A stretch of 64,000 nt of DNA from positions 62,001 to 126,000 of the forward strand of contig AP026158.1 in NCBI GenBank assembly GCA_030295235.1, written 5' to 3'. The DNA is from Fistulifera solaris (lineage: Eukaryota). Positions 8,956-55,111 of the stretch are shown here, piece by piece. The position numbers and the translations under genes were made by a program. Within the stretch, counting starts at the first letter, position 1, and each line of letters starts with the position of its first letter. The notes beneath the pieces are model-generated. The model searched no databases. It saw nothing but the letters and a program-made list of their open reading frames with translations, and was not told the origin of the DNA.

Positions 8956-11419
8956 TTAATCGAAAACACCCTTCGCCTTCACTTGTTCAAACTCACTACT
9001 GTGCGTCTCGATGACTTGGCGGCGTTGCAACTTGTTCGCAGCAGTCAAGCAACCGTTCTCCGGGGTCCAGGGCTCATCCAGCAAAGCGACCGCGACTACT
9101 TTCTCCAGATGACTCAAATCCGATTTGGAGTGTTCCTTATGCATATCCGCCAGTACAGCATCGTGCAGCTCCTTTGTCTTCTTAATCTGCTGGAAGTCGC
9201 CAGAAATTCCATTTTCTTTGGCCCACTTCATTGTGTACGGTTCGCTTAACTGCAGCAATGCGACGGGTCGATCCATGTCACCATCACCGTAACAGCAAAT
9301 GCCGCCTGCTACAGCGTCGACGAAGCTCGAGTTTCCAAACGTCATTTCCATCTTTTCGAGGGCAACATATTCACCGCCTTTCAGTTTGACAAGATTCTTC
9401 TTACGGTCCACAATACGTAGACTGCCATCGCTCAAAAACTGACCAATGTCACCCGTATGGAACCAGCCATCTTCTTCAAAAACTTCCCTCGTCTTTTCGG
9501 GTTCCATGTAATATCCACACGAAACGGTGTTTCCGCGAATGAGAATCTCTCCACGACCGTAAACAGGGTTGCCATCCACATCGAACTTGTCTGTACAAAG
9601 ATAAGGGACACCTGCTTTGTCACCAACCTCTGGCGTCGACTCGAGTTTGATTTCCACGGCAGGAATGGCGACACCTGCCACGCCCGTGCTCATGTCGTCC
9701 ATGGCCTGGAACGTGCCTCCTGCGCATGTTTCAGTCAAACCCTGTCATAGGAATGAAGGAGAGAACAGTGTTAGTGAACACAATACGATAGCTCCGCATA
9801 ACCCATCCTCCGTTCAATTTTTCTACTTACGTATCCTTGGACCAGCGAGATGCCGAATGCCGTTCGAATAAAATTCTGCACTTCGCCATTCAATGGACCT
9901 CCACCCGAAACGGCCAAACGCAATCGTCCTCCGACAGCCTTTTTAAACTTTTTAAAGACAACTTTATCGAAAAGGGGCGCATCAAATCCATGTTTCAAAC
10001 AGAACTGTCGCCATTTGAGTCCAGTAGCAACTAATTCCTGTTTGACGGGTGATTCGGCAGCGACTTTGGTCTGAATACCTTTTTGATGACATCCCAAATC
10101 TTGGGCACTGCCACCATAATCGTCGGAGAGTAGACTTCCAGCGCTCCGATCGGATACGCTCCCGTAGTCGTAAGTGACTTGGGGTCCGCGTAACAAAGAG
10201 CACATCCTTTACTGATCATGACACATTCTGCCATAAGTTCCATAATATGAGCGAGTGGTAGATAGGCCAAATAAACTTCTTCTCCTTCGCGGATTCCGAA
10301 ACCCACATCAGCCGAAGCACATCCGGCAACAACCTGAGAATGCGTGATAATGACACCTTTGGGTTTTCCCGTGGAACCGGACTGTAAAAATTGGAAACGT
10401 GAGTCAATTCGTTTTAGCTCAACGCTGCTTGGTTCAAAATTCAACCAAGACGTACCGTATACATGACAACCGCACACGTGCTGGGTTTCGGTGGCACTGG
10501 AGGATACTTCTTGACATCCCCCGACTTTACGAACTCATCAAACGACATGACTTGGACACCATTGGGTGGCTGCGGCCACTCGATCTTGGCATCGACAGGA
10601 ACCAAATCGTTGGTGTAAACAATGTACTTCAAAGTGGGCATGTTCGCACAATTCTTCACCAATTTCGCGACCGAAGCCTTGTTGCAAACAATCACACGAA
10701 TAACATTGTCCGATATGGCTTCCATGACGGCATCAATTCCCAAGGTTGCGTAAACTGTAGTAACAGTGATGCTTTGCGTGAACGCCCCCATAGCCGCAAT
10801 CATCCAGGGTGCACACGTATTCTCAAAGATGGCGATACGACAGGGCTGTGCAATTTTGTCTAAATTGGTCGTTTCCGGTGCCGCAACACAACCCGCCGCT
10901 TTCAAAGCAGCACCGAATTGCAGTGCCTGCTGATAGACTTGCAAAAAAGTCTGCCAGGTAATGTTGGGACCGAATTCTTTGATCTTGGGAGTCTTCCATC
11001 CGATGAATTCTCGTGTCGCCATGCAAGGACGGTTTCCGTAGCGTTCCGACGCATCTTTCATAACATCGTAAAGCGTCGAAATGCCTTCGCGCGGAGTCGT
11101 AGCCAGCTGGTCGCGATAACGAACGTCGCGACGCACGTAAGGTTGCCCATCGACCGCACACGTGCGAAGAGGAGTGCCCGTAAAGTAACTTTGCAGAGCT
11201 TTGACCCAACGGAATGTGACGAGTGTAATCTAAAGTTTTATGAAGAGTGAGAAAGAGCGGCAGAAAGGGAATAAAGAGAGGGAAAACGAACTAAGCATTG
11301 CCGCAACTTGAAGAAAAGCTCCTCCTCAACGCTCCTCAACTTGCCTACAAAACGAAACGTACCGTTAAATCAATCAGAATCAAAAGAATCTTAATCGGCA
11401 AGAGAAGCAAGCCAATCAT
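8956..11419 (-). CDS. LACS: Long-chain acyl-CoA synthetase; introns 11230-11362, 10382-10455, 9742-9830; frameshift near 10080
   Basis: YT/SGSTGKPKG AMP-binding motif, YLPLAHI, QGY/GLTET, GWFHTGDIG, IVDRKKNLVKL..GEYVA. N-terminal hydrophobic anchor. Confidence 0.93.
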
Positions 11420-12278: not shown

Positions 12279-13620
12279 ATGACGACACCGACACCCCATG
12301 CATCATCTTCCCAACGATCGGCACAAGTCGCTTCCTTCAAAGTCATGGACGTCTTACAACGCGCCAATGAATTACAAACGGCCGGATACGATGTATTGCA
12401 CTGTGAAGTAGGACAACCGGAAACTGGAGCCCCCGAACCGTCCAACAAGCCGCTGTAACAGCCTTGCAACATCCCCACGACAATTTGGGATACACCAACG
12501 CGTTTGGCTTGTCGGCATTGCGCACCAAAGTCGCGGAACATTACTTCCACAAATATCAAGTCAATGTATCTATGGAACGAGTCGTCATTACGACAGGATC
12601 GTCGGGAGGTTTCTTGTTGGCGTTTACGGCTTGTTTTGATGTCGGTGATGTGGTCGCCATTGCTTCGTCCGGATATCCTTGTTATAGGAACATTTTACAA
12701 GCGTTGGGTTGTACATTAGTGCATGTGCCGCTCAATGAGGATTTTCAATTGACCGCGACGGAGTTGTTGGCCGCTTTAGAAAAGACTCCGAAGATCAAAG
12801 GTTTGATTTTGAGTTCCCCCAGTAATCCGACGGGTGCCATGTTGTCACCGACCCAATTGCAAGAATTGTGTCAAGTATGCGATCAACATCATATTCAATT
12901 TCTATCGGATGAAATTTATCATGGTATATCTTATGGAAGTCAAAAGAAGCCACGGCAATTCAATTCTCCGACAAGGCGGTCGTTTTGAATAGTTTTTCCA
13001 AGTATTATTCCAGTACGTCGAAGGTCATAATATCATGTACTGGTTGTAACTTTTTGACCAATACTGACCGCTTTTTTTGTTTTTTCTCTACAGTGTCCGG
13101 ATGGAGGTTGGGATGGATGGTCTTGCCGGAACATTTGATCGATGCCGTCAACAAATTGCAGCAAAACATGTTTATCAATGCACCCACGCTGTCGCAAACA
13201 GCGGCCCTGCAGTGCTGGAATCCAGAAACGATACAAGAGTTGGAAAGTCACGTACACAAATATCATACCAGTCGGGAAATTATTTTACAGGCCTTGACAC
13301 AACTGCCCGGAAAACTGCATTGGGCACCGGCCGATGGAGGATTTTACGTGTATGTCGATTTGTTGGATCATTTGGCCTTGCCGCAATTGGGTTCTACCAC
13401 CTTTTGTTCCTTGTTCTTGGAGGAGCATCATGTAGCCTTTACACCCGGTATCGACTTTGAAGATCCTTCGACCGATATGGGGCATCGGCGGTTTCGTATT
13501 TCGTATGCGGGAGGCGTTGACACCGTGCGTCAAGCCATGGAACGTTTACAACAGTTCTGGCTCAGTTGGTTGGATCGTGTCGAGAGAGCGAAAGAACAAG
13601 AGACGACGAATACAGCATGA
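12279..13620 (+). CDS. PLP-dependent aminotransferase class I/II (AspB/AatA-like); intron 13013-13093; frameshifts near 12430 and 12943
   Basis: FKVMDVL..A...HCEVGQP, SPSNPTG, SDEIYHG, NSFSKYYS/MSGWRLGW (PLP lysine), PG.DF, RISYA. Confidence 0.9.
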
Positions 13621-24565: not shown

Positions 24566-25701
24566 TTTTGAATAATAGCTTGAATAACTCAGTCAGATGT
24601 ACCTGGTATTGTTTTATGGTTGTTGTTGTTCAGATAACTACCCGGCTGGACGAAGTTTTTACACATCAATGGGCCTCACTAGACTCGACAATCGACTCAA
24701 TTTGATTCGAGTCACGAATTGCGTCTAAGGTACATCTTTCCATAAAATGAAAATGTTCTTGTCAAACAGGTGCTTTTAGATCAATGAGAGAAGGGATCAT
24801 GGATGGTAACTCAATCCAGCAATTAGAATTGTGAAAGCTGTTTCATGTCTGGCATGGCATAGCAATCAATTCCGTCAAACAATAAAGTTTAGAAGTTCAC
24901 GTCAATATACGTACTTTACCGTACATCCGAAAGAACGACCACCCTTTGTTCGACGACGAAGACTCCTCAACACTCACGTTCCGGGATCATCTCTAATAGA
25001 ATGACGTTGCCCGTGGCTCGGTGGCACTCGATCATTCGCTTCTTCCAAGTTCAATCAAGAAATGCTCGTTGCCGCAACTCTCTATAGAAAAACAACGATT
25101 CATTCAGATTCATGACTGCAATCAATCGTGTCAAATAATGTCAACCATGTGACGACATCTTCGCACATCGTCAAATAATTTTTCCACGATTGTCCTGTTT
25201 CTTTCTTTTCTTTTTTTTTTTTTTTTTTTCAAACCAAAAACGCGCGAATGAACGGCAAATTTGTGGAGCCTTGCGGGCGCGCACGAGTCAATGACGTGGA
25301 CAAACCTACAAGAATGTTCCAGGATGACCTTGGTTCCGTTTTTGCTAAGGAAAAACACAAACCAAAAACTCTTTTGTTGACTACGGATTGCACGATTGCA
25401 CTTCGGTGCGGTCCACGTGTCACGCTGCTAAATACCCAAATGGGGCACTCACAATTACTCCCCCAACGGAAAAGTCACGCGGTAACAATTCTTTTAGTAC
25501 TGTAAATTCTTCCCACCATAACACCAAATTCGAGCGAAGTAAGTTGTGTTCGATCCTGCGAACTACACCACGGTTCGACGGATCCATTTTCCGCCTCTTC
25601 ATTTCTTTCTTCTCACTTTATTGTTGACCAGCAAAAAAAGAAAGAGAATCTTTTTATCTTTCATAAAATCTCTGTTTTGTTTCGTGAACGACAAAGCAAA
25701 C

Positions 25702-27378
25702 ATGATGAGACTGATGTTGGAGTGCATTGTTGTGGCTTTTCTGGTCGCTTTAACGTTTGCCGACGACGATGGGGCGAACCGTCCGGCCGAGTACGATCGT
25801 TTCAATTACGATACCACCGTCCGCGCGAACGATCACAACGACTACGGCCCTGAAGATTGGATTCGTGTGCGATGCCCAGATACACAAACCTGCTTGGGGT
25901 GGCCCGATTCTTTTGATGAAGCCATCGGATGGTCCTTCCCCGAGAATTCGTGTCAGTGGTGTCCGCAAGGCCGTGGATGTGGCACTCATCATCAAAGCCC
26001 CATTAATGTGTATCGCGAAGTGGTGAACGAGAACGACCGATTGCACAATGTGTGCATTGATGGGCACTGGATGAAGTACTTTGATAGCACGTGCACTTGG
26101 GACGAACTAGTGCGCAACAACGCCTTTTCGATTGAACGCCATACACTCAAGATTGCGCAGCCGACCGAGCAAATGGCGGATGGATCCTTCCGTATTGGTT
26201 GCCAAAATGAATTGGGTCGCCGTTGGGGAAAGATTGATTTCGCCAAGGGATTTTCGGATTGGTGGCATTTGAGCCACGTGGACTTGCACGTGCCGTCGGA
26301 ACACACCCAAAACGGCAAGCGATACGATGGTGAAATTCAAATGTATCACTTTTATTCCGTCTCTGGAGAACAAGCCGGTGTCAACAATGAGGTAAACATA
26401 TTGGATGATTTCGAGTGAAATTGTGGCCGTGACGGAAATCACAAATGTGTGTCTTACACTATCTTTTCTCTTGAACTCCATTCTTCACTCGCAGATGGGT
26501 ACAGTGACTGTGTTTTTGCAAGTGTATGATAATGCTCCCGATTACGGTACACTGAATCGCGTCATTTGTCAATGGCGTAAGGTCGAAGATCAAACCCGTG
26601 CCGCTTGTGGCTTGCCCAGTGTTGAAACGGAATATCCCGGATGTCACGTTTACACGCGGGGACGTGGCGTTTCGACGTCGTCCGGATTGCGTTCCTTGTC
26701 CGAGACGAATAACAACTCGACCCTTCCTCCCAAACCCAAGTCCGCGCACGACATTCTCATGCACAATTATTTACATCCCGAAAATATTATGCCCATCACC
26801 ATGGATGAAGAGGACTACAAGGACGAAGATGACTTTGACTGGGCCGCCTTTATTGCGGCACAATACGAGAATGATCGCCAAGTCCAGAATCGTCGTCACT
26901 TGTTGAATTACGATCACGTCGGTACTTGGCACAATTACTGGCCCCTCATTGACAGTCGAACGGAATACTATTATCGATACGGTGGTACACAAACGGTCCC
27001 TCCCTGCTACGGTCGATTCGTTCTCGGGAACAATCGTGCCCAAACCAACAATTGGCGTGTCATGAAAGATCCTATTCGTATTTCGCAGCGACAATTGAAT
27101 GAGTTGCATCGTTTGTTGCGCGAGCGCATCGCACCCCCGATGATCCCCTCGTGGCCTGCCAAGCCGATACGGCCGCCAAAGTCGATCCAGTCACCGGCTT
27201 TGTCGATGTCGCCCGTCCGTTACAAAACAATGACAAGGCGCATCACATGGTGTATTGTGAATGCGAGAACTGGGGCAGTCAATGGGAAGAAGACAAGGAA
27301 TATTGCCGTATCTTTCGCAATGACAAGAATGCTCGTTTGTTTCAGCATCCTTACAACTTTTATACCGATGGGTTTTAG
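25702..27378 (+). CDS. Secreted alpha-carbonic anhydrase-like protein, copy 1; intron 26392-26494; frameshift near 27135
   Basis: Signal peptide (VAFLVALTFA-DD), YGPEDW, HQSPINV, HVPSEHT..G.RYDGEIQMYH, YYRYGGTQTVPPC, ARPLQ. Confidence 0.85.
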
Positions 27379-27969
27379 TGGAAAGGGGTTGAGCGCTGGT
27401 GAGGTTCTCGTGTCGATGTCGATGGTTGGTCTAAATAATCTATTTCCTCGATGGGACATGCTATTTTCGGCCTGCTGGTTCGGATTTGTGTGGTTTGTGA
27501 TTTTGTGAGACGGCCGGCGGAAAAGATCGGGTCACGATTGATTTCCCTCTACTAGCTACTAGCTACTATAACATAATAATTGTCCTGTGATACGTTTTTT
27601 CGTGTACTTTTTTCCAATCATTGCATTGGCACTGTGATTCCGAATGCAGTTCGAGCCGTTAATGAATTGTAGCACAATGGATGCTTTCACCTATGTGCGT
27701 CCCCAATTTCCCTTCTTCAACGGAAATGAGCGCACTCTTTCGTGGCATATTCACAAAATTGTTTCGTCTTTCCCCCGATTGATTCCCTCCAACTCCGCCG
27801 TCCGCCAAAAGGGCGCGGAAGAAATCATTTTGAGGCTGTTTTGTTGGGCAGCATCTTCTGTCATTTTATTTTGTTTGGTTCGTCTTCCGCTCTCTCTCTC
27901 TCTCTTGTGTTGGAGCTCGTCTGTTGACGCTGAGACTCTACCGTTTATTCTACAGTTTCGAACATCAAC

Positions 27970-29630
27970 ATGCCCCGCATTGCTGTACGAGCCGCCCTCG
28001 CGGTCCTCCTCGCTACTTCGTCGACCTTTGCCGACGACAGCTCGAATCGTCCGGCCGAGTACGATCGCTTCAATTACGAAACGACCGTTCGAGCAACTGA
28101 TCACAACGACTACGGCCCCGAAGACTGGATCCGTGTGCGCTGTCCGGACCCAAAGACGTGCTTGGGATGGCCCGATTCCTTTGACGAAGCCATCGGATGG
28201 TCTTTCCCCGAAAACTCGTGTCAGTGGTGCCCCGCGGGCCGTGGTTGCGGTGTGACGCATCATCAGAGTCCGATCAACGTCTATCGTGATGTACAGATTG
28301 AAGGAGACCCTTTGTATAACCCGTGCATTGATGGGCACTGGATGAAGTTCTTTGATAGCACGTGTACGATGGAAGAATTGCAGCGCAACAACGCGTTTAC
28401 GATTGAGCGACATGCGCTCAAAATTGCGCAGCCCACCGAGCAGTTGGCGGACGGATCCTTTCGTATCGGCTGTCAAAGTGAGTTGGGACGTCGTTGGGGC
28501 AAGATTGATTTCGCCAAGGGATTCTCGCAGTGGTGGCATTTGAGTCATACCGACTTGCATGTCCCCTCGGAACACACACAGAACGGCAAGCGATACGATG
28601 GTGAGATTCAGTTGTATCACTTTTATTCTGTCTCTGGAGAAGAAGCTGGTGTGAACAACGAGGTAAGAAGATGATCGTTCGTCCTATTGTCAACGATACG
28701 TCGTTCGTGAATCTCAACGAGGCCTTCTGCTGTCTACTACAGATGGGTACTGTGAGTTTCTTTTTGCAGTCGTACGATGATACCCCCGATTACGACATGT
28801 TGAATCGCGTCATTTGTCAATGGCGTCGTGCGGAAGATCAAAATCGTGCCGCCTGTGGATTGCCCAGTGTCGAAACCGAGTATCCCGGTTGCCACAGCTA
28901 TTCCAGAGGAAATGCCGCTTCGACTACCGCCGGTCGCAACTTGCGCACGACCGTAGAGGCCAACGCGACACTTCTCGAGAAACCCCTTTCGGCACACGAC
29001 ATTATCATTCACAACTATCTCAATCCTACCGGTGAGCGCAAAACCATCACCATGGATGAAGAGGACTACAAGGACGAAGACGACTTTGACTGGGCCGCAT
29101 TCATTGCGGATGTTTACGAAAACGAGCGTCAGGTCCAGAATCGTCGTCATTTGAGAGACTACGACCACGTCGGTCCTTGGCACAACTACTGGCCTCTTAT
29201 TGGAGTCAAGACAGAGTATTACTACCGATACAGTGGCTCACAAACGATCCCTCCGTGCTACGGTCGCTTCGTTGAAGGCAACAATCGCGCGCAAACCAAC
29301 AACTGGCGTGTGATGAAAGATCCCATCCGCATCTCCAAGAGACAATTGGCTGAATTGCACCGCTTGTTGCGCGAGCGTATCGCTCCCCCCACGGATCCTC
29401 TCGTGGCCTGCCAACCGGATACGGCCGCGAAAGTAGACCCCACCACCAATTTTGTGGACGTGGCGCGGCCTTTGCAACAAGTCGAAAAGGCGCACCACAT
29501 GGTGTATTGCGAATGCGAGAACTGGGGCAGTCAGTGGGAAGAAGACAAGGACTACTGTCGTATTTTTCGGGACGATCGCAACGCACGATACTTTCAACAC
29601 CCTTACAACTTTTACACGGAAGGATTTTAA
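27970..29630 (+). CDS. Secreted alpha-carbonic anhydrase-like protein, copy 2; intron 28663-28742
   Basis: Tandem paralog of copy 1 with the same intron position, a signal peptide and intact frames; QSPINV, SEHT, GSQTIPPC, ARPLQ. Confidence 0.88.
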
Positions 29631-30422
29631 ACAGTTAATGCACTAGAATCTTCTTATATACATCATGTTACTGATTATTACAAAGCGAGCCACCGATTTT
29701 TCTTTAATGATTAATGATGGCTGTGTTTATCAAACGTCTTTGAATTGGTGAGGATTCGTGGGCTTTAAAACATCTTGCATCTACAAAGAGTAAATTGCCT
29801 ACAGCGATGCAATGATGCGCTGCTTTCGACTCGCGCCATTTAACTAGCAAGTACCCAGAGTATGGTCCGGAGATAAGATGATATAAAATCGTATCAAATG
29901 GGCTGTACAACTTGCATTGTGCTTCGTGCTACACGGGAAATAGGAACTTGAATGGGTTTGAATTTTAGACATTTTAGTTTTACTAGCGAGACCATAGTCT
30001 CTGTCTAGAGACGACAAGTTTGCACAGATGATCATGTATGTTGTAAAATCCCTGGAATTTATGGCGCTCCTGGACAGCTCAAACGGCCTCTTACTACGTT
30101 GGCTATCATCCTGTACCTAGCGCGTGGCGTGTTCGCTGTCCGACGCTCGATACTTTTAGGCCTTGGGTAGGCCTAGCCTCTAGCTCGAATCAGGCCATGG
30201 GCGTAATTCCAAATAGCCTTCATAACTTTATGGTGTTGCTCTGTACAGACAGATTTTGCTAGGTATTTGGCTCCTTCTCGTCAGAAAAAGCCTTGAAATC
30301 TTTGAAACGATTTGCTTGTCTTGACAACCAGAAATAATTGGATCTTTCGACAAACAGCTTCTCCCTTTTCATTTTCACGCCAACGCAGGATCTTTTGCAG
30401 TCTTTAAAGCCCCAGTCCCAAC

Positions 30423-32337
30423 ATGAGCGATTCCATCAATAAGAATTGCCGAGCCCTGACCGTGGACTTTGTCCTTCGTGACGATGATCCGGAAATGGCG
30501 GCCGTCGAAGACGATATCCGCCGGGATCTGTTGAAACTCAACATTCAGGTCAACACGCGGATGTTGAATGCTTCCGATTACGGTGATGCGGAACGCAATG
30601 GAGATTTCAATCTGTTGTTCACGCGTACTTGGGGAGCACGTAAGTACAAAGATGATTCGTATGAGACTGTTGTGTCAAAGCAGCCTCACCTTTCACTGCG
30701 GTGTTGTCAACCTTCTCCGTATCTTCGCCCCTCCTGTTCAATCTTCTTTATTACACGGATGATAACCAAAAGCTTACGATCCCCACACGTACTTGAATTC
30801 GTGGGCCATTCCGGCGCACGTCGAGTACGCGGCCTCGGCGCAAATGCACCCACCCCTCACCCGCGAAGACTTTCTCACCAAGGTCAAGAATGTGCAACGC
30901 GAAACCGATCCTTCCAAATTACAACAGCAGTGGACCGAAATTCTCAACGACATTCATCAACAAGCCATCTTTTTTGCCCTTGTGGGGGACCCGTATCCCT
31001 TATGTCGTGAGTCGTCGTTTGACCGACTTTACCCCCAGTCCCCAAGCCTTTTCGTATCCTCTCGAATCGGTCCGCATTGTGGAAGGTTCCGCCAATGTCA
31101 CCATTGCACCCGGTGCCGGTGGTTCCTTGTTTGAATCGGTGGGATCCATGAATCCGCACCAATACTTTCCGAACCAACTCTTTGCTCAAGCGTGGTTGTA
31201 CGAAGGTTTGGTCGCGTACGGCCAAGACGGAGAAATCTTACCGGCCTTGGCCACACAGTGGTCGACGGAAGAGATCGAAGGGGTGGTCAACGTGTAACAT
31301 TTGTGTTGCGCAAAAATGTCACATTCCACGATGGGGCGGCCTGGAATTGTGCCGCCGCCAAGTTGAACTTTGATCACGTACTATCGGACATTGTGCGCGA
31401 ACGTCACGGATACATGGGTTTGACGGCCATTCTCCAGAGTTGGACGTGTACTGATGCCGGTGAATTTGTGTTGGAAACCAGTGAACCCTTCTATCCGTTG
31501 TTGCAAGAGTTGACGTACATTCGTCCCTTGACGTTTGCGTCGCCCAACGCGTTTGCGCAAGGCCTCGATTCGCATCCGGATCAGCACAATTCCTGCAATC
31601 CGGGTGACTTTGGTTCGAGTTGGACGCATTTGGAGAAAGAAGTCACGTGCGCGGGTCTCAAATACCCGGCGGGTACGGGACCGTTCAAGTATGTCTCTCG
31701 AGTCACCAACGACGATGGCAAGGACACGCAGGTGGTCTTTGCCCGTCATGACACGTATTGGGGGACCGTACCCGGCATTGAGAATTTGATCATTCAAGCG
31801 TACGACAGTACGGAAGATGTCGAAGCTGCTCTGTTGGACGGCACATTGGACATGGCGTTGGGGGTCGGCCCCTTGACCGCGAAACAGGTGCAAGCTTTGA
31901 AATTCTCGCATTCCGACGTATTGGATGTCCGTCATTCCGATGTTTTGCAGCATGCGTTGGTGGTGATGAATACCGGTAAATCACCGACGGACGAGATTAC
32001 CGTCCGTCGCGCCATCACGCACGGCATTGACAAGAATACGTTCATTCAAAACGAATTTGCCGGCCTCGAGCAGCCCGTCGCGCAGTTGTTGCCATTCACG
32101 GCTCCGTATTGCGACGTCGATTTGTCTCCGAAATGGAGTTATGATTTTGAAAAGGCCCAGTTGATTAACTGTCCTGTCGAAGGCGATAATAGTTTGAGCA
32201 GTGGAGCCATTGCTGGAATTGCCATTGGAGGATTGGCCTTTGTGGCCTTGTTGATCTTTGTCGTGCGTCTCGTGCAAGCAGAGAAGCAAGGCAAACCCGT
32301 CTTTGCTCCTTCGACGAAGGGAGAAAGTAATATGTAA
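30423..32337 (+). CDS. Circularly permuted NikA/CntA-type (SBP family 5) binding protein with C-terminal transmembrane anchor, ZCRP-B-like; intron 30640-30772; frameshifts near 30972 and 31281
   Basis: RTWGA/PYDPH, VGSMNPHQYFPNQLFAQAWLYEGLV, YPLLQELTYIRP, GTGPF, NTGKSPTDEITVRRAI match E. coli NikA segments as recalled. TM helix GAIAGIAIGGLAFVALLIFVV. Confidence 0.88.
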
Positions 32338-32789
32338 CTGTTTCGTGATTGAAAGTTACTTAGTAAATAGAAAAGAAATATTTGACAAGTAAGTAAGTAA
32401 TATCATAAGATTGATTGATAGTAAGTAATAAGAAAGAAAAGAATGCGAGTGATGCGATGGGCGCGTTGGGTAACGAAGGTCATCTCATCTCATTTTCTGG
32501 GGATATTCGAATACACCTCTCCACTGTACTGTACCAGATTTTCTGTTTTGGAGAAAAACGGCACACCCGAGTTTTGAACTTTTCCACTTACAGATTCTGC
32601 GTCTGATTGATTTAGAACCCGGATATATGCGTTGCACTGTCATTTTGGCCCATCAACGCGGTCTTTCTCATATTTATTATATTCCTTATATTTTTACTCC
32701 GTATTGTGTTGTCGTATCGTCGGCCGTCGGCACAGAGTTGCGGGTTATTATTATCATTTCTTTCTTTTAAAGAATATTGCTAAACAATA

Positions 32790-35700
32790 ATGTCGACAAC
32801 TACAATTACAGCCGCCGAAACGGCACCCTTATCGAGTATGGCAGCGGCAATGTTCTTTGCCGTCATGGTCATGACATTTGTGACTTTGACGACCTTTGCG
32901 GCTTTCTTTTCTTCCACCAGCAACAATGAATCATCATCATCATCATCATCATCATCATTATCATTGAGTACTTTATATCAAGTCGCCAATCATCCCCACG
33001 CACAACCGGTACAATGGCGACAATTGTCGAGCATTTATACTGTACTGCAACACTTTTCACTCTTGGGAATCATTCTCTTTTATGCGTATCTGTGTGAATA
33101 TCATCCACCACATCCGCATGGTGAAAAAGTCTACGATCGGGATATGTTTTTCTTTTTGACGGCCTTATTGTTGCTGGTGGCGGCCTTGACGCACAAGTCG
33201 CATCCTCGTCGGACGACCAGTAACAGGAATAGTAGTAGTAGTAGTACGAGTACTACTACAACAAGCAATACTACTTCCGCATTGTGGGCACTGCAATGGA
33301 CCGAACGACCTGTCGCACCTCCAGAAGAAGCCACCGAGCTACTCAATCGCGATCAAACAGAGGAATGGAAAGGATGGATGCAATTCATGTTCTTGTTGTA
33401 TCATTATTATCATGCAGAAGAAGTCTATAACAGTATCCGGGTCATGATTACGTCTTACGTGTGGATGACCGGTTTTGGGAATGTTTCCTTCTTTTATTTG
33501 AAACAAGATTATTCTGCCTTGAGGGTAGTGCAAATGCTGTGGCGTTTGAATTTTTTGGTCGTCTTCTTGTGTTGGACGCAAGGCACCACCTACATCTTGT
33601 ATTACATTTGTCTCTTGCATACCTTCTTCTTTGGAATGGTGTATGTGACAATGAAGACCCAATCGCATCTCAATACGACCAAATACGGAATTCGTATCAA
33701 ATTCATGGTTCTGGCTTGTATCATCTACATTATTTGGGATCTGGATCTTGGATTGTTTCAACTCTTGCATAGCTGGTTTTTGGGACAAACACCCATGTTG
33801 GGAGCCACCGGCGGAGCCCTTTGGGAATGGTATTTTCGTTCGACGCTCGATCATTGGAGTACCTTCTTTGGAATGATCTTTGCTCTCAATTTCCCCATTA
33901 CGAGTTTGTTATTTCGCAAATTGGAAGCGCAACCGTGGTATTGGGAATGGTCCGCCAAATTCACCATGGCCGTTGCCCTGCTGACCTCGACGTATTGGTG
34001 GATCACCCATCCTTTGCGCAAAACAAATTCGAGTACAATCAAACGAATGCGTACTTTGCGTGCATTCCGGTCTATACTTATATTTTCTTACGAAATTTGA
34101 CGCCGTGGTTGCGGGAAAATACCTTGGAATTGTTGCACCAAATTGGAAAAACGACATTGGAAACGTACTTGATGCAGCATCATATATGGTTGACCAGTAA
34201 TGCCAAAACGTTGTTAATTCTGATACCAGGATGGCCGAAATGTAATTTCCTGGTGGTCAGTGTAATCTATGTCGTGTTATCGAGACGATTGTATACACTA
34301 ACCCTGTTTTTGCGGGGAATGTTGTTACCAAATGATTGGAATCAGTGCCGTACGAATTTAATCGGATTGATGGGGGCCATGGGAGCGTGTCATGCCATTG
34401 CGTGGATGTTGCAATTCGTGGGCATGTTAAGTTTGACGTCCGTGGCGGTAGTAGCGGCGGTCATCAGTGGCACTTTGTCGTATCGGATTGTGCGGGATAC
34501 GTCACCCACGGCAACAAATAATATTCACCCCGTACCGACTAAACCATGGTTGGTCTCTTGTTTCGCGGGATGGATGGTTGTTTTGGTGTTCGGACTAGTT
34601 TGGCACCACATGGCGCTGAATGGGGCCACCAAAGTACAGCCTTTACCGGATGTATGCGCGTCGGAAGTCATCCGTGGAGATTGGATTAGCGTTAATCTGT
34701 GCAATGAGGAAACCCGCGGTGTTGCCTACCGCGATGAAGACATGGGATCTTTAGGTGTTTGCCCGGCAACTCCGTCCGTGTGGGGTTGGACTCAATCGGA
34801 TTATGCCGAATGTCGCATGGTCGCTCGCGACAAGGGCGCTTTACAAAATACTCTAAAGCATCGCCGGCTTGTGTTTGTCGGTGATTCCATGATTCGACAT
34901 TTGTATTTTGCAATGGCTCGACAATTGGGTGATGCTAAGGCGGGAGCCTACAATACCACTTTGGATAAGTGGTCCAACTATGAAAATAAATACGGCTCCG
35001 TCGAACTGGAATTCAAATGGGCACCCTATGTGTACGATGTGACGGAGCAAGTCGCGCAAGCACACTCACGATACGATATCGATATGCTGATTGTGGGTGG
35101 CGGAGCTTGGGATCGGTTACATCATTATCCTAACAGTCAGGCCGCGGTAGAAATGGAGAAGAATGTCACGAAATTGGTGGCAGCCGTAAAAAAGCAGAAA
35201 CAGCACAGTGACATTCCCATAGTCTGGGTGACGCCGACGACTATTAATGATTGGGCTCTTACGGATGATGCCAAACGTGCCCATCTTCCGGAATCCAACA
35301 TGCAGCATCTGCGAAGCTTGTACCAGAAGCAAGGGATTGAGGACGCAGTCGACTGGACATTGCCAGGACCTGTCTTCACCCGCACTCGTGTTGCAGAGAG
35401 TTATGATGGGGTCCATTATCCTTTGCAAATATATCACGCCGGTGCACAAATACTCTCGCAAACCTTTGATTGGTTGTTGCTGCCCCTTTCCCCTGAAAAG
35501 GATGATACTTTTACGCCGAAACGACCTGGTGAAATGTCCAATCCTATTCTTGGTTTGTTGATGCTCTGTTTAGCTTTCATTGGTCTGTTTGGTTTTGACG
35601 GATTCCTTGGAGCCAGTTACCTGGTATACTGTTTTGTCCCCAAGGTTATTCCGAAGCGGCTTTATACCGAATCTTTTCGGCAGCTTCACCTGGCTGCAGG

Positions 35701-35875
35701 GTTACCGCCCATCACCGAAGACGATGCAATGGATGACTTACAAGTGGACAAAAGTAAGAGCAGTGACTATGTTGATGGTAACGAGGACTCGGACGAGGAA
35801 AGAGAAAAGTTCCTACATGACGATGTCAAACCTTTTGCTCAAAAAGATGTCGAACTGACGATACGGACGATTTAA
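32790..35875 (+). CDS. Cas1/RWA-type O-acetyltransferase: multi-TM Cas1_AcylT domain followed by an SGNH/PC-esterase domain; frameshift near 34014
   Basis: LLNRDQTEEWKGWMQ..LLYHY, SYVWMTGFGN, EWYFRSTLDH, LETYLMQHHIWL, then VFVGDSMIRHLY and YDGVHY. Confidence 0.88.
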
Positions 35876-53621: not shown

Positions 53622-53658
53622 AAACAACGACAACAACAACAACAACAACAACAATAAC
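53622..53658. repeat. (AAC)n microsatellite upstream of NFS1
   Basis: aacaacgacaacaacaacaac... read directly. Confidence 0.85.
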
Positions 53659-53681
53659 AAAAGCCAAGTTTTTACTACAAC

Positions 53682-55111
53682 ATGATGATGCGAAGAGCGC
53701 TTTTGAATGATGCACGCCGTCGCCTTATTACGACAGGAACCTCTCGGTTCAATTCGATGATGATTCGTACGATGAGCGTCAAAGTCACTTCGCTTGCCAA
53801 TACGGAACCACTCAATCATAATAATAACAACAGCAATGGTTCTTCGAAATTCAATTTACGCGGTCAATTTCGATCGGGCAAAGCCGCTTATTTGGATACC
53901 AGTTCCACCACGCCCCTCGATCCACGTGTCCTCGATGCCATGTTACCGTACATGATCGGAAGTTACGGCAATCCGCACAGTCGAACGCATATCTACGGAT
54001 GGGAAGCCGAACATGTCGTTGAACATGCCCGTCAATCGATTGCTAACCTCATTCATGCCGATGACGCCAAAGAAATTATCTTTACCAGTGGAGCGACGGA
54101 ATCGAACAATTTGGCCATTAAAGGATCCGCGCACTTTTATCAGAAACGTGGTAAACATCTCATTACGACACAGACCGAACACAAGTGTGTGTTGGATTCC
54201 TTTCGGAATTTGGAACAAAAGGAAGGATACGAAGTGACATATTTGCCCGTACAAGCCGCGACGGGGAGGATTGATTTGAATCAATTGAAAGAAGCCATTC
54301 GACCGGATACCATTCTTTGCAGTGTCATGGCAGTCAACAATGAAATTGGAACTTTACAGCCATTACAAGAAATCGGTGCATTGTGTCGACAAAACAAAAT
54401 TGTCTTTCATTGCGATGCGGCACAAATGTTGGGAAAATTACCCATTCATGTCAACGATTTGCAGATTGATTTGATGAGCATGAGTTCCCACAAAGTGTAC
54501 GGCCCGAAAGGAATTGGAGCCTTGTATGTGCGTCGGCGTCCTCGCGTGCGTTTGGAGCCATTGTTGAGTGGAGGAGGGCAAGAACGAGGTTTGCGCAGTG
54601 GAACCTTGCCGCACTTTTTGTGTGCCGGATTTGGACACGCGTGTGCACTGGCCCAACAAGAAATGGAGTTCGATACACAGTGGATTACGTACTTGAGCAA
54701 CAAGTTGCAAAAGGGATTGAAACCACCATTCCGGCCGTGGTACGCAATGGCGATCCGGAACACAATTACAATGGTTGTCTTAATTACTCCTTTGCGTATG
54801 TGGAGGGAGAGAGTTTGCTCATGGCCCTTAAAAATATTGCCGTCAGTTCGGGATCGGCGTGCACGTCCGCGTCACTCGAACCCAGTTACGTGTTGCGGGC
54901 TCTCGGGGTCGATGACGAATTGGCGCACAGCAGTTTGCGATTCGGCATTGGACGTTTTACGACGGAAGAAGAGATTGATTTTTGTTTGGAATTGTTACAG
55001 AAACATGTCGAACGATTGCGTGAAATGTCACCCCTGTGGGAAATGGTACAAGAAGGAATCGATTTGAAAACGATTCAGTGGACACAGGACGCGACGGATG
55101 GGCATCATTGA
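53682..55111 (+). CDS. NFS1: Mitochondrial cysteine desulfurase; frameshift near 54711
   Basis: Arg-rich presequence, [68 protein letters not shown]. Confidence 0.96.

Follow-up and report, generated by a model that had tools for sequence, protein, structure and literature searches.

The diatom Fistulifera solaris raises the question of how a protein of the bacterial NikA type came to be coded by an algal nuclear gene with its two parts in swapped order, and of what such a protein might do there. The gene lies at positions 30423-32337 (+) of a 64,000-nucleotide stretch of contig AP026158.1 (assembly GCA_030295235.1, positions 62,001 to 126,000 of the forward strand), which is called the window in this text and whose first letter is position 1. 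NikA of Escherichia coli and Brucella is the periplasmic receptor for Ni-(L-His)2 or metallophore complexes. An earlier note, made from the DNA letters, had described a circularly permuted, intron-bearing and membrane-tethered NikA homologue; the gene structure, the motifs quoted from the protein and the swapped diagonals of its alignments bear this observation out. It is highly probable that the F. solaris gene codes a naturally permuted NikA-type (family-5, cluster-C) protein of 593 residues, provided with a membrane helix and a conserved tail, that would serve as a metal-chelate receptor without an ATP-binding cassette (ABC) importer.

The window protein is circularly permuted relative to NikA. 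P0007, an uninterrupted relative 66% identical to it, was used as query against the sequences of solved structures. Residues 15/23-172 of P0007 correspond to residues 344/348-496 of the E. coli and Brucella NikA, residues 195-337 to NikA 11-148 and residues 365-535 to NikA 150-311, each of the three stretches with E 1e-15 to 1e-25; for residues 15-172 against NikA 344-496 the value is ~1e-17. The order expected of a collinear family-5 protein (N-terminal lobe segments first, C-terminal third last) is not found, the diagonals being swapped. The alignment to NikA and CntA that the earlier note had proposed as a check gives swapped stretches and no single collinear alignment to NikA. The match to the family profile PF00496 is likewise split over two stretches of the sequence in P0007, P0006 and P0114, all of them full-length relatives. 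The profile matches P0003 at profile positions 16-270 (E 1.2e-34) and P0007 with E 5.5e-50; residues 9-172 have a weak match to profile positions 293-348. The match to NikA sequences reaches E 9.5e-68. Sequence and structure matches agree with the position first given for the cut, which falls between NikA residues ~327 and ~339. The parts of the protein are placed in the window as follows:

30447 to 31072, forward strand: counterpart of the C-terminal third of NikA (~339-496), residues 9-172, interrupted by the intron and starting at the conserved Cys9 (sequence and model matches).
31073 to 31084, forward strand: junction, residues 173-176, at which the old C-terminus runs directly into the old N-terminus (alignments and models).
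31085 to 32184, forward strand: counterpart of NikA 2-327, residues 177-543 (structure and Pfam match).

Structure prediction, a second check proposed at the outset, leads to the same arrangement. The AlphaFold model of P0127, the deposited F. solaris protein, was built on 93 relatives and has a predicted local distance difference test score (pLDDT) of 93.9 and a predicted template modelling score (pTM) of 0.86; its two parts superpose separately on NikA. A sequential structure aligner, which places one diagonal at a time, puts model residues 177-543 on NikA 2-327 with Z 26-27, a root-mean-square deviation (rmsd) of 2.1-2.7 Å, 317-321 aligned residues and ~32% identity. The Foldseek TM-score against NikA-type structures is only 0.54 over ~375 columns, as expected of a permutant of which a sequential aligner fits just one diagonal. 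The other part is matched by the model of the P0249 fragment, which consists of the N-terminal part alone (pLDDT 79) and aligns with NikA from 313/326 to 499-502 (Z ~10, rmsd 3.5-3.8, 170-173 residues aligned). The modelled parts, superposed separately, jointly cover NikA 2-327 and ~320-502, so that the two-lobe fold is predicted to be complete. The counterpart of NikA 496-502 ends at about residues 172-178 and that of NikA residue 2 begins at model residue 177. A short Gly linker had been proposed between the two parts. The Gly-rich stretch (residues 185-190) is instead a loop six residues longer than that of NikA, inside the segment superposing on NikA 2-15; according to the model it is no linker and the old termini are fused directly. 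This is the organization of a natural permutant: NikA ~339-502 is followed by NikA 2-327, so that the parent domain is covered by two exchanged segments, the former ends being joined and the new ones lying at one surface site. That a disulfide between Cys9 and Cys539 staples the new termini is only an idea.

Such an order might come from a misassembly, from two adjacent gene fragments or from a pseudogene, and exon 2 does have two frame shifts in a window where several other genes are also split into overlapping open reading frames (ORFs). The deposited protein GAX23139.1 of F. solaris (P0127, 593 residues, deposited as 'dipeptide transport system substrate-binding protein') and contigs of public runs of F. 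solaris were compared with the window. One gene is recognized, composed of exon 1, a 133-nt intron and exon 2:

30405 to 30407, forward strand: in-frame TAA five codons 5' of the start (read from the sequence).
30423 to 30639, forward strand: exon 1, with the ATG at 30423, coding residues 1-72 and base 1 of codon 73 (exact substring of P0127 from position 1).
30640 to 30772, forward strand: intron of 133 nt, GT..AG, phase 1 (read from the sequence).
30773 to 32337, forward strand: exon 2, residues 73-593 and the TAA (32335-32337), with two single-base homopolymer errors (match to P0127).
30970 to 30975, forward strand: frame break 1, a run of six T with one T too many (contigs of other runs; P0127 reads ..QQAIFLPLWG..).
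31280 to 31283, forward strand: frame break 2, a run of four G with one G too few (contigs of run X1; P0127 reads ..EEIEGGGQRV..).

The letter at 30970 is missing from the contig of run X4 (depth 3.09 of 3.09), which has 0 other differences from the window, and from contigs of run X1 in a depth of 22.7 of 52.5. The X1 contigs also have an extra G behind 31279 (depth 29.3 of 29.3). GAX23139.1 runs straight through both breaks. The window gives four in-frame pieces of 72, 66, 103 and 351 residues, 592 in all, each of which recurs unchanged in this protein; its sole residue outside them is that of the split codon 73. A second copy, GAX28694.1, is 98% identical and belongs to the same cluster. Since the breaks are absent from the other contigs and from the deposited protein, they are assembly errors of homopolymer length, and the two one-base corrections made in the earlier note are justified. 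An artefactual or decayed gene is thus very improbable, given that GAX23139.1, from the same homeologue, is unbroken and agrees with the window in 592 of 593 residues, that the same order is found in all 93 aligned full-length relatives, transcript-derived ones included, and that the model is compact (pTM 0.86).

The gene is intact, intron-bearing and nuclear. The intron splits the codon of Pro-73, between ..TWGA and YDPH.., and joining of the exons gives ..TRTWGAPYDPH.., a sequence that P0127 and relatives known from transcripts, among them P0031, have without interruption. Both the GT..AG intron at this site and the eukaryotic character of the surrounding genes accord with the spliceosomal-type intron and nuclear location first claimed. 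CDC20, RFC, HSF, Vps51 and Suf-type genes, all ordinary eukaryotic ones, are neighbours of the gene and define a nuclear eukaryotic context. Contigs of the three runs compared span the intron without a joint, which identifies these runs as DNA; the splice and the transcription start follow the deposited annotation and the homologues, a point that weighs against the gene model. P0044, P0060, P0077 and P0130 begin with non-homologous residues right before ..(G)APYDPH.., which hints that the intron position may be shared with other diatoms. A Pseudo-nitzschia transcript product (P0152, 670 residues) has a ~70-residue unrelated insert within the conserved ..NQLFAQ..YEGL.. that looks like a retained in-frame intron.

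The search of diatom and algal proteins, also proposed at the start, shows how far the permutation extends. With the C-terminal 352 residues as query 232 proteins were found at E <= 1e-10, and with residues 1-200, which span the junction, 103 proteins at E <= 1e-5. All of the 93 full-length relatives aligned (40-98% identity, some transcript-derived) are collinear with the permuted order, which has thus become fixed in a large family of algal proteins. The permuted class comprises 127 of the 186 full-length proteins gathered, in a sample biased towards the query and with P0250, really a tandem double canonical protein, counted among the 127. Permuted relatives occur in the diatoms Fistulifera, Cylindrotheca, Conticribra, Pseudo-nitzschia, Seminavis, Nitzschia, Cyclotella, Cyclostephanos, Skeletonema and Amphora, and outside the diatoms in the cryptophyte Rhodomonas, the green algae Pycnococcus and Pyramimonas and the haptophyte Diacronema (a fusion protein). 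Among prokaryotes, 281 relatives were found in GTDB (one genome per species) and the best 80 loci all have the canonical order (77 assigned by rule, 3 by inspection). An exhaustive profile-free search gave 9563 proteins at E <= 0.001; those full-length matches that rank in the best 150, with 25-36% identity, have the canonical order. Another permuted clade, a divergent one (~40-47% identity), is formed by P0161, P0167, P0170 (Nitzschia inconspicua) and their relatives, with at least one named diatom among its members; in this clade a signal-peptide-like N-terminus and the helix are kept and the tail is different. Judged from these sequences, diatoms may have two permuted paralogues of different targeting.

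How the swap arose is indicated by a set of proteins (P0216, P0255, P0305, P0196) that keep the canonical order, carry a signal peptide and have the membrane helix and tail of the permuted family. An MMETSP transcript (P0353) and P0400 of the silicoflagellate Octactis speculum belong to their group, and of 52 relatives of at least 600 residues found for these anchored canonical proteins 49 are canonical, 42 have the helix and 38 the tail motif. Quick unrooted maximum-likelihood trees were calculated for the two halves separately, from 41 hand-picked permuted rows and the canonical rows passing a coverage rule. The tree of the N-like part (89 rows) is divided by a branch with support 100, on one side of which stand 41 bacterial-type canonical rows and on the other the 41 permuted rows together with 7 anchored canonical ones. 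In that of the C-like part (86 rows, 3 canonical rows being dropped for short coverage) the permuted rows are one side of a branch with support 95. This agreement between the trees of the two halves speaks against a chimera formed from two genes. The nearest relatives being anchored canonical algal proteins, it is suggested that the swap arose once, within an already anchored eukaryotic gene. Several points weigh against this reading: the N-part tree gives the monophyly of the permuted rows, that is one change, a support of only 52; the trees are quick ones without an outgroup, with the 41 permuted rows picked by hand for diversity from 127; and most anchored relatives of canonical order are metagenome or metatranscriptome proteins.

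The simplest reading of these sequences has three steps. A bacterial-type gene would have entered algae; the canonical-order algal gene would then have gained signal peptide, helix and tail; and its binding domain would have been permuted once in eukaryotes, most easily by internal tandem duplication and trimming, which would have shifted the tether from lobe I of NikA to lobe II, near the membrane. The acquired and re-engineered receptor of the earlier note is retained in part: a bacterial-type origin is part of this simplest reading, while a freshly acquired bacterial gene was probably not what was permuted, as the closest relatives are canonical algal proteins that already have the helix and tail. 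The duplication model of circular permutation requires an intermediate with two domains in tandem. P0250 (1016 residues, cluster of a Methanophagales archaeon) has two complete family-5 binding domains in tandem; at 23-24% identity to the algal family it shows that such fusions exist and is no evidence of ancestry.

The likely ligand is suggested by the pocket. In the NikA pocket, which is lined by Tyr22, Trp100, Trp398 and Tyr402, the chelate complex is held through its metal by His416 and through its carboxylates by Arg97 and Arg137 (PMC11091072); the title of PDB entry 3qim also gives the metal-binding role of His416. The counterpart of this His lies early in exon 2:

30817 to 30819, forward strand: codon of His88, counterpart of NikA His416 (alignment to NikA).

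In the 93 relatives the counterparts are W70 (NikA W398) in 92, Y74 (Y402) in 93, H88 (H416) in 81, Y203 (Y22) in 93, R283 (R97) in 84, W286 (W100) in 90 and R323 (R137) in 93. The alignment thus indicates that the ligand-pocket residues of NikA are retained, the metal-binding His included. Against this stand a Tyr at the W100 position in F. solaris itself and the replacement of His88 in 12 of the 93 relatives. Two proteins, P0179 (1037 residues, Diacronema lutheri cluster) and P0413 (981 residues), have the permuted domain fused, in either order, to PF01497, a siderophore/cobalamin-type binding domain, P0179 also having a signal peptide and a C-terminal helix.

NikA (E. coli, Brucella suis; PDB 1zlq, 1uiu, 3qim, 4oer) is the best match in both sequence and fold and has PF00496 in common with the window protein. 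The window protein differs from it in the swapped segments, the ~10 NikA residues (~328-338) missing at the cut, the fusion of the old termini, the absence of a signal peptide, the presence of a C-terminal helix and tail, the intron and the absence of nikBCDE-type genes nearby. CntA (Opp1A) of Staphylococcus aureus (PDB 5yh5, 5yhe, 5yh8) is the second-best structure match (Z 26, sequence E ~4e-40). It is a receptor for staphylopine-metal complexes that binds Ni, Co or Zn in metallophore-bound form (PDB entry titles; PMC9010474), but it has the canonical segment order and is part of an ABC importer. As stated in the earlier note, ABC permease and ATPase genes are absent from the window: no match to ABC_tran (PF00005) or BPD_transp (PF00528) is found in 112 of its 118 ORFs of at least 110 residues, the 6 omitted ones overlapping the gene itself. 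An export signal (hydrophobic N-terminus), another trait of bacterial family-5 proteins, is missing as well.

Family 5 binds many classes of ligand, and structures of DppA, OppA and AccA also match (Z 20-21), so that the permuted protein could take a peptide, an opine or a sugar rather than a metal chelate. This is unlikely: NikA and CntA are best in sequence (E 1e-68 to 1e-40, versus 1e-16 for DppA-type proteins) and in structure (Z 26-27), the seven NikA pocket positions are conserved with the metal-touching His among them, natural fusions join the domain to PF01497 metal-chelate binders, and the literature on the diatom protein ZCRP-B (PMC9010474) reports a response to Zn and Co. The best matches, the pocket, the PF01497 fusions and the lack of ABC genes in the window are read together as indicating a stand-alone, membrane-tethered metal-chelate receptor. 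It is predicted to close like a Venus flytrap on a chelate of Zn, Co or Ni with a small amino-carboxylate ligand, whose metal His88 would touch while Arg283 and Arg323 would hold the carboxylates, and it would work without an ABC importer. NikA residue 327, at the cut, lies in lobe II. The His416-bearing lobe of NikA is lobe II (PMC11091072), and the permutation would tie the anchor to that lobe.

The C-terminal membrane helix first proposed is found at residues 549-570, followed by a short tail:

32200 to 32265, forward strand: transmembrane helix, residues 549-570, with GxxxGxxxG (hydrophobicity 2.82 over 19 residues).
32266 to 32334, forward strand: basic tail of 23 residues with the motif [RK]E[KRQ]x0-2GxPxF, here ..AEKQGKPVF.. 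(motif count in relatives).

In the AlphaFold model the helix spans residues 549-577, and only about nine residues separate it from the binding domain. GxxxG is present in 65 of the 89 permuted relatives with a helix and the tail motif in 64 of the 93. Conservation of both suggests a membrane or cytosolic partner; a partner recognising the GxxxG helix and the EKxGKPxF tail would receive cargo from the window protein or sort it.

On which side of the membrane the binding domain stands is less clear. A signal-peptide-like hydrophobic N-terminus is present in 32 of the 93 permuted relatives and absent from 59, among them the F. solaris protein and all named main-clade diatoms; the N-termini without signal are mostly Met-Ser and only 4-10 residues ahead of the conserved Cys9. 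The in-frame TAA at 30405-30407 rules out an N-terminal extension with a signal peptide on exon 1. No ORF with a Met followed by a hydrophobic stretch, as expected of an upstream signal-peptide exon, is found on the + strand in 29650-30423; two AG dinucleotides there, 30408-30409 and 30414-30415, are conceivable splice acceptors. The 'surface protein' of the earlier note is accordingly unproven, the signal peptide being absent from the window protein and from 59 of 93 relatives and the helix lying 18-28 residues from the C-terminus. The missing signal peptide conflicts with a simple extracellular receptor.

Tail-anchored proteins lack a signal peptide, have their helix near the C-terminus and keep their bulk in the cytosol. 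The window protein has the corresponding sequence features: it lacks a signal peptide, and its only helix is followed by a tail of 23 residues, inside the ~30 residues usual for this class. The diatom protein might therefore be tail-anchored and inserted post-translationally, its permuted domain lying on the cytosolic side of the plasma membrane or of an inner one; there it could take a metal-chelate just after import, and it would scavenge nothing outside the cell. Such an orientation is a serious possibility, somewhat short of an even chance. It accounts for the lack of a hydrophobic N-terminal segment in the 59 relatives and for the stop 15 nt 5' of the ATG. The distance from helix to C-terminus is 18-28 residues in 53 of the 59 signal-less relatives, versus 15-77 residues in the signal-bearing ones, and a helix in such a position, as is well established for tail-anchored proteins, emerges from the ribosome only once translation has ended. 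The fusion protein localized to the cell membrane had yellow fluorescent protein at its N-terminus (PMC9010474). However, relatives ~60% identical carry cleavable-looking signal peptides (32 of 93), which makes the binding domain of those relatives exoplasmic; the signal-less clade keeps the cysteines C265, C298 and C347 (93/93), C365 (92/93), C539 (91/93) and C9 (90/93); the tail motif, cytosolic in the signal-bearing forms, is retained; the charges, acidic before and basic after the helix, fit an N-out orientation; and a TOPCONS prediction puts the bulk outside (PMC9010474).

A wider reading joins these elements, namely that the diatom ZCRP-B-type proteins are tail-anchored with a cytosolic permuted NikA domain, derived from a single algal permutation that moved the tether to lobe II before the signal peptide was lost. 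As a whole it is possible but doubtful. If it is true, the published outward-facing picture of Zn scavenging would be wrong for diatoms, and the protein would be an intracellular hand-off station for metal-chelates, for instance between ZIP importers and the ZCRP-A chaperone.

The membrane-tethered metal-chelate receptor, whichever way it faces, resembles two groups of eukaryotic proteins. The anchored canonical algal proteins (P0255, P0216, P0305, P0353, P0400) have the GxxxG helix and EKxGxPxF tail in common with it and join it in the N-part clade of support 100, but their anchor is on the canonical C-terminus, often via a long spacer, and their identity to the window protein is ~28-36%. The other is ZCRP-B (Zn/Co responsive protein B) of marine diatoms, described by Kellogg et al. 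2022 (PMC9010474) as a NikA homologue with 30.5% identity to the E. coli protein, one membrane helix, a cell-membrane location and induction at low Zn or Co; NikB and NikC were not detected in the authors' proteomes and homologues occur in other algae. The Phaeodactylum tricornutum ZCRP-B is protein 49168, with primers given for loci 41508 and 49168 (PMC9010474). The description is matched by the ~32% identity to NikA over 317-321 residues and the single helix of the window protein, and the permuted family includes Pseudo-nitzschia and Thalassiosirales members.

The window protein probably belongs to this Zn/Co-responsive family, the comparison being with the description in the paper only, which counts against the assignment. 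So does the statement in PMC9010474 that the helix of ZCRP-B is 'near the N-terminus', when it is C-terminal in all 89 helix-bearing relatives analysed here; either a different gene model or a slip in the text would explain this. No P. tricornutum or T. pseudonana names occur among the named members of the family clusters. The gene is thus already annotated and its family published. The permutation, which the author of the earlier note did not know to be described, was found neither in the literature, searched by title and abstract, where only engineered sensors and unrelated work appear and no natural permutation of a family-5 binding protein, nor in the main text of PMC9010474, in which 'permut' has 0 occurrences (its NikA/CntA alignment is in Supplementary Fig. 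6, outside the text searched).

Other features of the window lie around the gene. Just upstream, two tandem groups of ORFs (25543-27505 and 28605-29627, +) show weak matches to alpha carbonic anhydrase (PF00194, E 4e-6, 9e-6 and 2.5e-7, at or around the 27-bit cut-off; carbonic anhydrases in the PDB, E 0.004-0.009). If these are real, genes for a major zinc-using enzyme adjoin that of a binding protein of the zinc-stress type. The genes split into overlapping ORFs in different frames are at 10034-11229 (-), 12407-13617 (+), 32784-35872 (+) and 53658-55108 (+) and code an AMP-binding enzyme, a class I/II aminotransferase, a Cas1p-type acyltransferase and a class V aminotransferase. They may hold further single-base assembly errors or short introns.

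The permuted family is a natural proof that a cluster-C binding protein, large as it is, can be cut inside lobe II and have its termini fused directly. Such knowledge can serve the engineering of binding proteins as sensors, a field in which the permutants in the literature found, by title and abstract, are so far man-made. In field work, the swapped order or a junction-spanning peptide separates algal ZCRP-B-type proteins from bacterial NikA; in one field study all 'ZCRP-B' matches were reported to be bacterial (10.1101/2023.11.05.565706). How a marker of zinc stress in the ocean is oriented and works is put in doubt by the lack of a signal peptide and by the tail-anchor geometry. Finally, the path from a bacterial-type gene to an anchored algal protein and then to an internal permutation would be traceable in this family, canonical and permuted forms being both still present in algae.

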